From Escherichia coli (GTDB lineage: Bacteria; Pseudomonadota; Gammaproteobacteria; Enterobacterales; Enterobacteriaceae), in assembly GCF_003334785.1 (NCBI RefSeq), contig NZ_QOWV01000060.1: a stretch of DNA of 1,428 bases; one strand, 5' to 3'. The position numbers were made by a program, and so were the translations under genes. Under the pieces are notes generated by a model. That model was not told where the DNA came from, ran no database searches, and worked only from the letters and a program-made list of their open reading frames with translations. Below are positions 1 to 1,428 of this stretch, one piece after another. The stretch's first letter is position 1. Each line of letters starts with the position of its first letter.

Positions 1-119
1 GTGGAGGTGAAGGCCACGCCGGGTTCATGAAGATGGCGGTCCAGGGTTTTCAGGGCCCGTTGAATGAGGCTGCGCTCGCCGGGCGTCATCTCTCCGGGCA
101 GAAAGGAAAGCTGTTGCAT
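1..119 (-). CDS. RadC-like JAB/MPN-domain protein (YeeS/YfjY/YkfG family), 5' partial: only the N-terminal 39 codons are in the window, the C-terminus lies beyond position 1
   Basis: Manual minus-strand translation from the ATG at 119..117 gives MQQLSFLPGEMTPGERSLIQRALKTLDRHLHEPGVAFTS, open to the window edge. I recognise this as the N-terminus of the RadC-like proteins of E. coli CP4-type cryptic prophages. A purine-rich SD-like stretch GGAGAGAAG (124..132) lies 4-9 nt upstream. An in-frame ATG at 134..132, directly after the upstream stop (TGAATG), is an alternative start. Absent from the ORF track because the in-window part is short. Confidence 0.75.
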   Translation of the reverse strand, partial: MQQLSFLPGEMTPGERSLIQRALKTLDRHLHEPGVAFTS

Positions 120-123
120 TGTA

Positions 124-132
124 CTTCTCTCC
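124..132 (-). promoter_or_regulatory. Shine-Dalgarno-like ribosome-binding site for the RadC-like gene
   Basis: Minus-strand sequence reads TGA-ATGGAGAGAAGTACA-ATG; the GGAG/GAGAAG purine run sits at a suitable distance upstream of the ATG at 119. Confidence 0.5.
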
Positions 133-134
133 AT

Positions 135-608
135 TCAGTCGATGATGCGCATAATGGCGCTGCATTCCGGATGCTGCAGGGCGTAATCCCGCAGCCGGTA
201 ATAATGGACCGTCATGGCATAACACTCCGTACGACAGGCATGATGACTGTACGTCATCAGACAGGCAGCAATGCCGGCAGCTTCCGGACTCATTTCAGCG
301 CGGTTACCGTTCATGGCATTGAACAGTACCCATGTTTCGTCATCATCGTCATCCGGTTCGGGTGCCATAAATGCCCCGCCGTTGTTCAGGGTGTACAGAT
401 TCCAGATACCACCGCAGTAGTCTTCGCACAGACGGTCCATCCAGCCGAAGACACGGGGCTCCAGGGTCACCCACTGTGGAATGAGGCCAAAGTGCTGCGG
501 CCAGAAGCTGATGCGCTGTTCATCAGGGACGAGGGTGGCAACCAGTTGTTGCAGGTCAGTCTCCGGTGCACAGGCCGAGGAGGTGGTGTTCTGAGACAAT
601 GTTTTCAT
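135..608 (-). CDS. Antirestriction protein, ArdB/KlcA family (Pfam Antirestrict-type; YfjX/YafX-like), 157 aa, complete
   Basis: Minus-strand ORF ending at TGA (137..135). Protein from the internal ATG at 608..606: MKTLSQNTTSSACAPETDLQQLVATLVPDEQRISFWPQHFGLIPQWVTLEPRVFGWMDRLCEDYCGGIWNLYTLNNGGAFMAPEPDDDDDETWVLFNAMNGNRAEMSPEAAGIAACLMTYSHHACRTECYAMTVHYYRLRDYALQHPECSAIMRIID. The VPDxxRxxFWPxHFG...PQW, CxxYxGGxW, LxNGG, SxEAAGI, YxLRD and HPE motifs match my recollection of KlcA/ArdB-family proteins. This start is preferred over the track's ATG at 785 because it has a strong AAGGA ribosome-binding site 8 nt upstream and gives the typical family length of ~150-160 aa. Confidence 0.85.
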   Translation of the reverse strand: MKTLSQNTTSSACAPETDLQQLVATLVPDEQRISFWPQHFGLIPQWVTLEPRVFGWMDRLCEDYCGGIWNLYTLNNGGAFMAPEPDDDDDETWVLFNAMNGNRAEMSPEAAGIAACLMTYSHHACRTECYAMTVHYYRLRDYALQHPECSAIMRIID

Positions 609-616
609 GTATGAAA

Positions 617-621
617 TCCTT
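617..621 (-). promoter_or_regulatory. Shine-Dalgarno site (AAGGA) for the antirestriction gene
   Basis: Minus-strand sequence reads TTACAAGGATTTCATACATG; AAGGA lies 8 nt upstream of the ATG at 608. Confidence 0.65.
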
Positions 622-794
622 GTAATGTGAATAAATGAGAGGGAGTAAAGGTCGGGAGCTGGCAACATCACGTTCATCACTGACCGTGATGACCCGGTAA
701 TATCAGGGATGAATGATATTCGGCTGAAATTCCGGACAGCCGTACGCGTAACCGTTCCGGTCACAGACGGATGGCCTGATGCCATTGCCTGTAC

Positions 795-812
795 TCAGTC
801 TGCACAGACTGA
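795..812. repeat. 18 bp near-perfect palindrome tCAGTCTGcaCAGACTGa (candidate operator or short hairpin)
   Basis: Plus strand 795..812 is tcagtctgcacagactga: 8 bp arms (795..802 and 805..812) around a 2 bp centre. No downstream T-run on either strand, so it does not look like an intrinsic terminator. Confidence 0.45.
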
Positions 813-909
813 TTTCTCCGGGACGGTAAAGCAGACGGGTATACCAGGCGCACAGGTCATCATCAGAAATGGAACGACATCCCGGCAGCGCCTTCAGGGA
901 CAGGCTGCA

Positions 910-1428
910 TCAGCGCAGGCTCTCCAGCAGCGTTTCCGCCATCACCCACAATGCGCGGTTGAGCTTAATATCGGTGTCGATGCTGTGAATGGCACGGGTG
1001 TGGATACGTTTTCCTCTGGCACTGCGACCGGAAATCCCGCCTTTCAGCATATTCTCCTGGATGGTCTGATAAGTACTCCACAGGTCCTTACCGTAATCCT
1101 CCCTGCGTCGCGGTGTCAGAATGTCAGCGGTGGTGACGGGCTGATGTTCGTCACCATAACGGTAAGTCAGTGCCGCCTGTGCCAGCGCCTGGCGTGCCGG
1201 TGGCGGCAGAATCAGCGACTGCATGGCATCACGCTTTTCCTCAATCCGGTCAAAAACCCCCACCACCTCGTAAGCCCCTTCAATGACTCTGTCCACCACA
1301 TTTCCCCGGTGCGGAACACGCACTTCCCCCAGAGACTGACCACAGACGCATCCGTTCTGGCAGACGAACCTGAAGTAACCCGGCAGCATCTGGTAGCTGG
1401 AGGTACCGTCATGAGAGTTGAGCAGAAT
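910..1428 (-). CDS. DUF932-family protein (YfjQ/YafZ-like), 3' portion: C-terminal 172 codons plus stop are in the window, N-terminus lies beyond position 1428
   Basis: The track ORF 910..1389 (-) remains open in the same frame up to the window edge. Manual translation of 1428..1390 gives ILLNSHDGTSSYQ, running into MLPGYFRFVCQNGCVCG..., so the track's Met at 1389 is internal. The stop is TGA at 912..910. The NSHDG(T/S)S and FxCxNG motifs fit my recollection of DUF932 proteins, which commonly sit upstream of antirestriction genes in enterobacterial islands. The family label is less certain than the call that it is coding. Confidence 0.7.
   Translation of the reverse strand: MLLNSHDGTSSYQMLPGYFRFVCQNGCVCGQSLGEVRVPHRGNVVDRVIEGAYEVVGVFDRIEEKRDAMQSLILPPPARQALAQAALTYRYGDEHQPVTTADILTPRRREDYGKDLWSTYQTIQENMLKGGISGRSARGKRIHTRAIHSIDTDIKLNRALWVMAETLLESLR

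Follow-up and report, generated by a model that had tools for sequence, protein, structure and literature searches.

The 1,428-nucleotide (nt) stretch of Escherichia coli DNA studied here (contig NZ_QOWV01000060.1; the whole of this stretch is called the window below) is, with a probability of roughly 0.88, an internal fragment of a conserved accessory array that is carried by tRNA-integrated E. coli islands of the CP4-44/pheU type and by related conjugative plasmids of the Enterobacterales. The array has the order DUF905 - DUF932 - small Cys-rich gene - ardB - RadC-like JAB - DUF987 - cbeA/cbtA - DUF5983 - DUF957 - DUF4942, where CbeA/CbtA is a type IV toxin-antitoxin pair. All meaningful reading frames of the window lie on the minus strand, and three co-oriented genes can be recognised: the 3' part of a DUF932 gene (1428..910, 172 codons plus a TGA at 912..910), an intact ardB/klcA-type antirestriction gene (608..135) and the first 39 codons of a YeeS-type RadC-like JAB gene (119..1). 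Between the first two lie the pseudogene remnant of the small Cys-rich gene (909..703, minus strand), which was recognised by alignment and translation against intact copies, and a non-coding spacer on the same strand (702..609), which was delimited by reading the sequence and by an inverted-repeat search. A same-strand module of DUF932, antirestriction and RadC-like genes had already been proposed in the first-pass annotation of this DNA, and the Pfam and PHROG matches, together with the identity of the RadC-like part to a JAB protein of E. coli TW10722, bear this out. The order DUF932 > ardB > RadC-like on a single strand is the one that characterises the CP4-type, or tRNA-island, accessory module. 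The window has a GC content of 55.8%, and the chromosome annotation under its matches (identity up to 99.8%) reads DUF932, antirestriction protein and JAB domain-containing protein, in that order. The gene identities and the match values are far beyond chance.

By megablast, 4,891 of the 5,426 complete E. coli genomes searched contain related sequence, at a median of three places per genome (maximum 15), almost all of them chromosomal. The best match was found in E. coli TW10722, with 99.8% identity over the whole window. Downstream of the RadC-like gene, this genome carries DUF987, a YeeU-family antitoxin, CbtA, DUF5983, DUF957, DUF4942, an integrase fragment and cadC, while the upstream side holds DUF905 (frameshifted), DUF4339, patatin, RdcB, dynamin and the Ag43-family adhesin Cah, as well as a YeeP-like GTPase split by IS100. 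The island starts at a tRNA-Phe gene with an adjacent tyrosine integrase, and the 3' end of the tRNA, together with its terminator, is repeated just before cadC with a 1-nt deletion; this repeat was found by reading the sequence, after a pattern search that allowed mismatches only had missed it. Counted from the tRNA-Phe gene to the repeated tRNA 3' end, the TW10722 (pheU) island is therefore about 67 kb in size. The other close relative, E. coli LD39-1, is 99.2% identical overall and 100% identical over 609-909, and carries the array at the K-12 CP4-44 locus beside tmaR/yeeA. The first-pass annotation had expected DUF987 and a CbeA/CbtA-type pair to follow the RadC-like gene, and an integrase and a tRNA attachment site to lie further away, with direct repeats among the features to look for in the flanks. 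DUF987 and the toxin-antitoxin pair are indeed present in TW10722 and LD39-1, the nearest relatives, and also in a Klebsiella plasmid and in Mixta, and the more distant hallmarks are those described above for TW10722. The island context in the two nearest relatives likewise agrees with the earlier view that the window lies in horizontally acquired DNA. A gene set comprising YeeP, Ag43, YkfF, YafZ, KlcA, YeeS, YeeT, YeeU and YeeV has been described in the pheU, pheV and selC islands of Shiga toxin-producing E. coli (STEC) (PMC6174562).

Matches were also found in 707 plasmid records, 475 of which are predicted to be conjugative, and conjugative IncFIB/IncHI1B plasmids of Klebsiella carry the entire DUF905-to-DUF957 array. 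In one Klebsiella plasmid array (NZ_CP021699.1), DUF905-DUF932-small gene-ardB-radC-DUF987-YeeU-CbtA follow one another in the same order and orientation, and the DUF932 and ArdB proteins are approximately 72% identical to those of the window. It differs in being plasmid-borne, in having an intact small gene (84 amino acids, aa) and in an extra 72-aa open reading frame (ORF) between ardB and radC. The same array is carried by Yersinia and Mixta chromosomes.

In E. coli K-12, the synteny that the first-pass annotation had drawn with the CP4 elements proved looser than claimed, although paralogues of the module are present in CP4-6 and CP4-57. The genes lfgABCDE (yfjX-yfjY-ypjJ-yfjZ-ypjF) of CP4-57 and yafX-ykfG-ykfH-yafW-ykfI of CP4-6 share the order ardB - RadC/JAB - DUF987 - antitoxin - toxin, and a DUF932 gene (yfjQ and yafZ, respectively) lies upstream on the same strand. 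The identities to the proteins of the module are 67-75% for ArdB, 73-74% for DUF932 and 76-82% for the RadC-like protein. Unlike in the window, however, four to nine other genes separate DUF932 from ardB, and neither element contains the small Cys-rich gene or homologous upstream DNA. CP4-44 (yeeR-yeeS-yeeT-cbeA-cbtA) is without DUF932 and ardB altogether, with yeeR in the place that DUF932, the small-gene remnant and ardB occupy in the window, whereas the DNA is 100% identical over the last 95 nt. This homology (12303-12397) begins 24 nt inside radC, and YeeS is without the first 10 residues of the window protein. The edge of homology inside radC looks like a rearrangement breakpoint.

The protein encoded by ardB, which is 157 aa in length, matched the Pfam family PF03230 (Antirestrict) with E=3e-37 over the complete model (positions 1-92 of 92, residues 62-157) and PHROG 10132, 'anti-restriction protein', with E=1e-63. 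Among solved structures, it was aligned to ArdB of E. coli CFT073 (PDB 2WJ9, ORF14 of pathogenicity island II, PAI-II) with 154 of 157 residues identical (E=2.7e-110), and to KlcA (2KMG) with E=2.6e-21. The CFT073 protein has the same length and belongs to the same Pfam family, and the window protein differs from it by three substitutions only (D18 for G, L26 for I and D62 for N). The predicted isoelectric point (pI) of the window protein is 4.58, while characterised ArdB/KlcA members have values of 4.6-5.05 (PMC2836571). A full Antirestrict match, a relative of solved fold and the character of a small acidic protein together place it in the ArdB/KlcA family. The identities to the K-12 paralogues are 75% for YfjX (now LfgA) and 67% for YafX. 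A ribosome-binding-like AAGGA site precedes the gene at 621..617.

The CFT073 protein alleviated type IA-ID restriction in vivo, with anti-restriction values of 54-1174 (PMC2836571, Serfiotis-Mitsa et al.), and K-12 YafX and YfjX likewise relieve restriction by all four type I families in vivo, all three with little effect on modification (PMC2836571). By analogy with the 98%-identical CFT073 protein, the window ArdB would counter type I restriction. With a crystal structure and in vivo data at hand for ArdB, and with the cassette common in E. coli islands, the first-pass judgement that this is a known module rather than a new system can be upheld. The cassette is already known and ordinary, and offers little for discovery.

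The RadC-like gene starts at 119, which is 15 nt past the ardB stop codon, and is preceded by GGAGAG at 132..127. Its 39 residues in the window match the N-terminus of a JAB/RadC protein (158 aa) of E. coli TW10722 with 100% identity, and the segment from residue 11 to residue 39 also occurs unchanged in K-12 YeeS. The JAB domain (Pfam PF04002 / TIGR00608) lies outside the window, and both domain and motif were read in this TW10722 relative with its identical N-terminus. The full-length TW10722 protein scored 148.4 bits against TIGR00608 (cut-off 133.85), and its alignment to the RadC homologue PDB 2QLC showed the metal-binding motif of the family, H-x-H-x7-S-x2-D, to be present as HNHPSG...PS..D. 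Compared with K-12, it is 96.6% identical to YeeS, 82% to YkfG and 76% to YfjY. YfjY, renamed LfgB, has been reported to be a protease that degrades the antitoxin MqsA under oxidative stress (PMC10846083). The functions of the DUF932 and RadC-like proteins had both been described as largely uncharacterised in the first-pass annotation, and the work on LfgB means that the RadC-like protein is no longer wholly so.

The first approximately 100 codons of the DUF932 gene lie beyond the window. The part inside it matched Pfam PF06067 with E=6e-34 (model positions 67-227 of 227) and is 100% identical to residues 101-272 of TW10722 WP_001234625.1; the identity to K-12 YfjQ/YafZ is 73-74%. The full-length relative matched PHROG 12094 with E=2e-128. 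The family is large, with 5,370 cluster representatives at E<=1e-3 in a scan of 1.84 billion representatives. In an alignment of 44 diverse members, whose reference row is identical to the window protein, P29, E99, G117, C123, N125, H140, R208, E225 and G230 were invariant, and seven of these nine positions (all except P29 and E99) fall within the window. An AlphaFold2 model of the protein was confident, with a predicted local distance difference test score (pLDDT) of 92 and a predicted template modelling score (pTM) of 0.88, while Foldseek gave no match for this model in the PDB at E<=1e-3, and a literature search on DUF932, YfjQ and YafZ found no functional study. In this uncharacterised fold, C123, N125, H140, R208 and E225, along with E99 outside the window, are candidates for residues with a functional role.

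The approximately 300 bases between DUF932 and ardB hold the remnant of a small gene that had not been noted in the first-pass annotation. In intact copies, the final base of the DUF932 stop codon is also the first base of an ORF of 81-87 aa (TGATG), whose end lies a short distance 5' of ardB. Such an intact ORF was found between the two genes in most E. coli copies, in Klebsiella plasmids, in Yersinia intermedia and in Mixta. A protein search returned 184 homologues of the small protein across the Enterobacterales at 52-65% identity, none of which has a Pfam domain, and the protein itself gave no match in Pfam, NCBIfam or PHROG. The alignment of the homologues showed an invariant R-x-x-SDDD-x-C motif and nearly invariant C36, C49, C71, W58, P59 and YRPGE, with a conserved core of GCRSISDDDLCAWC...YRPGE.SLC...WPS.CD..GY...CP. 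This conservation pattern suggests a small metal-binding protein. An AlphaFold2 prediction of its structure (pLDDT 56) was too poor for fold comparison. That the small protein is an unrecognised, translationally coupled and probably zinc-binding partner of DUF932, and with that a missing component of a common cassette, is an idea that we put forward tentatively and consider doubtful. A nucleic-acid or metal-dependent role of DUF932 and this putative partner would be a guess, made from the invariant E/C/N/H/R/E positions of DUF932 only. K-12 ypjI was considered as a homologue of the small gene and rejected, as neither tblastn nor translation showed any relation.

In the window, the small gene has suffered a 38-bp deletion near its 5' end, between the imperfect repeats GAAGGCG and GGAGGCG. 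The frame is therefore shifted and the gene broken. The original ATG (910..908) now opens an ORF of only 15 codons, which ends at 863, while the remnant at 909..703 consists of 68 codons without an in-frame ATG, GTG or TTG and carries C36Y and W58R at nearly invariant positions. The same deletion variant was found in 66 of the 5,426 complete E. coli genomes, including O104:H4, 55989, 042 and H10407. Other E. coli copies have other lesions, such as an internal deletion, or frameshifts that lead into the frame that is open 5' of ardB, and decay of the gene appears to be under way in E. coli islands. After the deletion, the remnant shares the frame of DUF932 and is parted from it by a single TGA (909-912), which may well be coincidence. 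Low-level read-through of this stop codon could give a fusion of DUF932 and the remnant.

Genome annotations of the DUF932-ardB stretch vary between none, 'hypothetical protein' and a misnamed 'antirestriction protein'. The explanation for this disagreement between annotation pipelines lies in the presence of a real, unnamed small gene that is often broken in E. coli. On the 5' side of its start codon, the ardB frame has a further 59 open codons (609-785), giving a 216-aa ORF at 785..135. In many E. coli and Shigella copies, a frameshift leads from the small protein, after its first 52 residues, into this frame, as in a cluster of 193 sequences, and gene callers therefore yield chimeric 'antirestriction' proteins. 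The unnamed small gene family, defunct in the window, is the only point of modest novelty here.

In the best-supported reading, the tightly spaced and co-oriented genes of the array would be transcribed together and form a cassette for the establishment and maintenance of a mobile island. In such a cassette, ArdB would neutralise host restriction and protect the unmodified DNA of the element on entry into a new host, the JAB protease may remove a host regulator, an antitoxin or a defence protein, as extrapolated from the 76%-identical paralogue LfgB, and the CbeA/CbtA pair would stabilise the island. Several points weigh against this account and against the island reading on which it builds. 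We infer co-transcription from gene spacing only, and a consensus scan of the window for promoters and terminators found none. The molecular mechanism of ArdB is unsettled, since no direct inhibition was seen in vitro (PMC2836571), and the LfgB and ArdB experiments were made on paralogues or on a near-identical protein, so that their bearing on the window copy is by analogy. The island context is borrowed from relatives, in which the module occupies at least two loci (pheU in TW10722 and the CP4-44 locus in LD39-1). Finally, no transfer genes were seen in the approximately 67-kb TW10722 island, and a role in establishment after transfer may therefore be vestigial.

DUF905, located directly upstream of DUF932, is frameshifted both in TW10722 (19378-19601) and in LD39-1 (13388-13583), a further sign of decaying island copies. 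Since the small gene is dead in the window and DUF905 is frameshifted in the closest relatives, the data suit an island that is resident and slowly decaying better than one in active transfer.

Other origins and functions of the window were weighed against the island and plasmid accessory array. The K-12 record names the paralogous regions 'cryptic prophage CP4-6/-44/-57' and all three window proteins match PHROG families, as would suit a remnant of a genuine (P4-like) prophage with genes of phage origin. However, only one of 50,697 phage records matched, a 3.2-kb unannotated record covering just 40% of the window, no structural, lysis or packaging genes occur in the 67-kb TW10722 island, and the same array is found on the 707 plasmid records and their 475 predicted conjugative members. 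Because the module is nearly absent from phage records and common on conjugative plasmids, 'integrative island or plasmid accessory cassette' is a better label than 'prophage', 'cryptic prophage' being a historical label, and an origin from a true prophage appears very improbable. Of the first-pass description as an integrative element or cryptic prophage, the former part is retained, with the island in TW10722 as its support, and the latter is given up. A role of the cassette as a stress-response operon that the host has by now domesticated, in the manner of lfgABCDE of CP4-57, would be compatible with its being an island accessory array, and is brought to mind by the 76% identity of the full-length RadC-like relative to LfgB. 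K-12 cells that have lost lfgB are sensitised to heat, acid and H2O2, and the promoter region of lfgA is bound by MqsA, which LfgB degrades (PMC10846083). The region upstream of the window ardB has, on the other hand, no DNA homology to that upstream of K-12 lfgA, where the MqsA site was mapped; genomes with the cassette have between 1 and 15 copies, approximately 10% of genomes lack it, and its neighbouring genes are decaying. We consider domestication of this kind unlikely.

A third possibility concerns the stretch between DUF932 and ardB, where 609-909 could be a functional structured element, either an Frpo-like single-stranded DNA (ssDNA) promoter or a regulatory RNA for early expression of ardB. 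Antirestriction genes in plasmid leading regions can use ssDNA promoters (PMC11541004). When folded as ssDNA, the 600-915 stretch was far more stable than its shuffled versions (z -4.8 for the sense and -3.0 for the antisense strand), and this also held for an intact E. coli copy (z -4.15). As RNA, however, the same stretch reached a z of only -1.9, and its orthologues in Klebsiella, Yersinia and Mixta were no more stable than shuffled sequences (z -0.3 to -0.9). Among E. coli copies, the sequences differ too little for covariation to be tested. An Frpo-like promoter has a conserved hairpin together with -35 and -10 hexamers, and no sigma-70-like hexamer pair was found on either strand; an Rfam scan of both window strands gave no match at E<=1. 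Moreover, the stretch is mostly coding sequence of a conserved protein. As the signal is not conserved and the hexamers are missing, the reading of 609-909 as an Frpo-like promoter or structured RNA was rejected as exceedingly improbable, and the ssDNA fold signal, which is unexplained, is probably incidental.

The spacer at 609..702 contains an 11-nt inverted repeat (666-676 / 681-691), and apart from this one hairpin the window has only short repeats at chance level. The Klebsiella plasmid copy lacks this 94-nt spacer, and its ardB starts 16 nt past the small gene. The interval from the small gene to ardB in Yersinia intermedia holds a strong GC-rich hairpin (ACAAACAGGC...GCCTGTTTTGT, at about 4330-4370), which is terminator- or attenuator-like and does not occur in the window. 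PADLOC defence models gave no match for any of the four proteins. Elsewhere, the TW10722 island (9591-31436) holds defence-type genes, namely a cluster of an SNF2 protein, an AAA ATPase, an S8 peptidase, a DNA methyltransferase and a DEAD/DEAH helicase, as well as an SLATT protein and a Qat system (KAP NTPase, QatC and QatD).

The accessory array to which the window most probably belongs is among the commonest accessory modules of E. coli islands, and the window marks horizontally acquired DNA. DUF932, for which thousands of clusters and a confident model stand beside no structural or functional relative, is a fair target for experiments.

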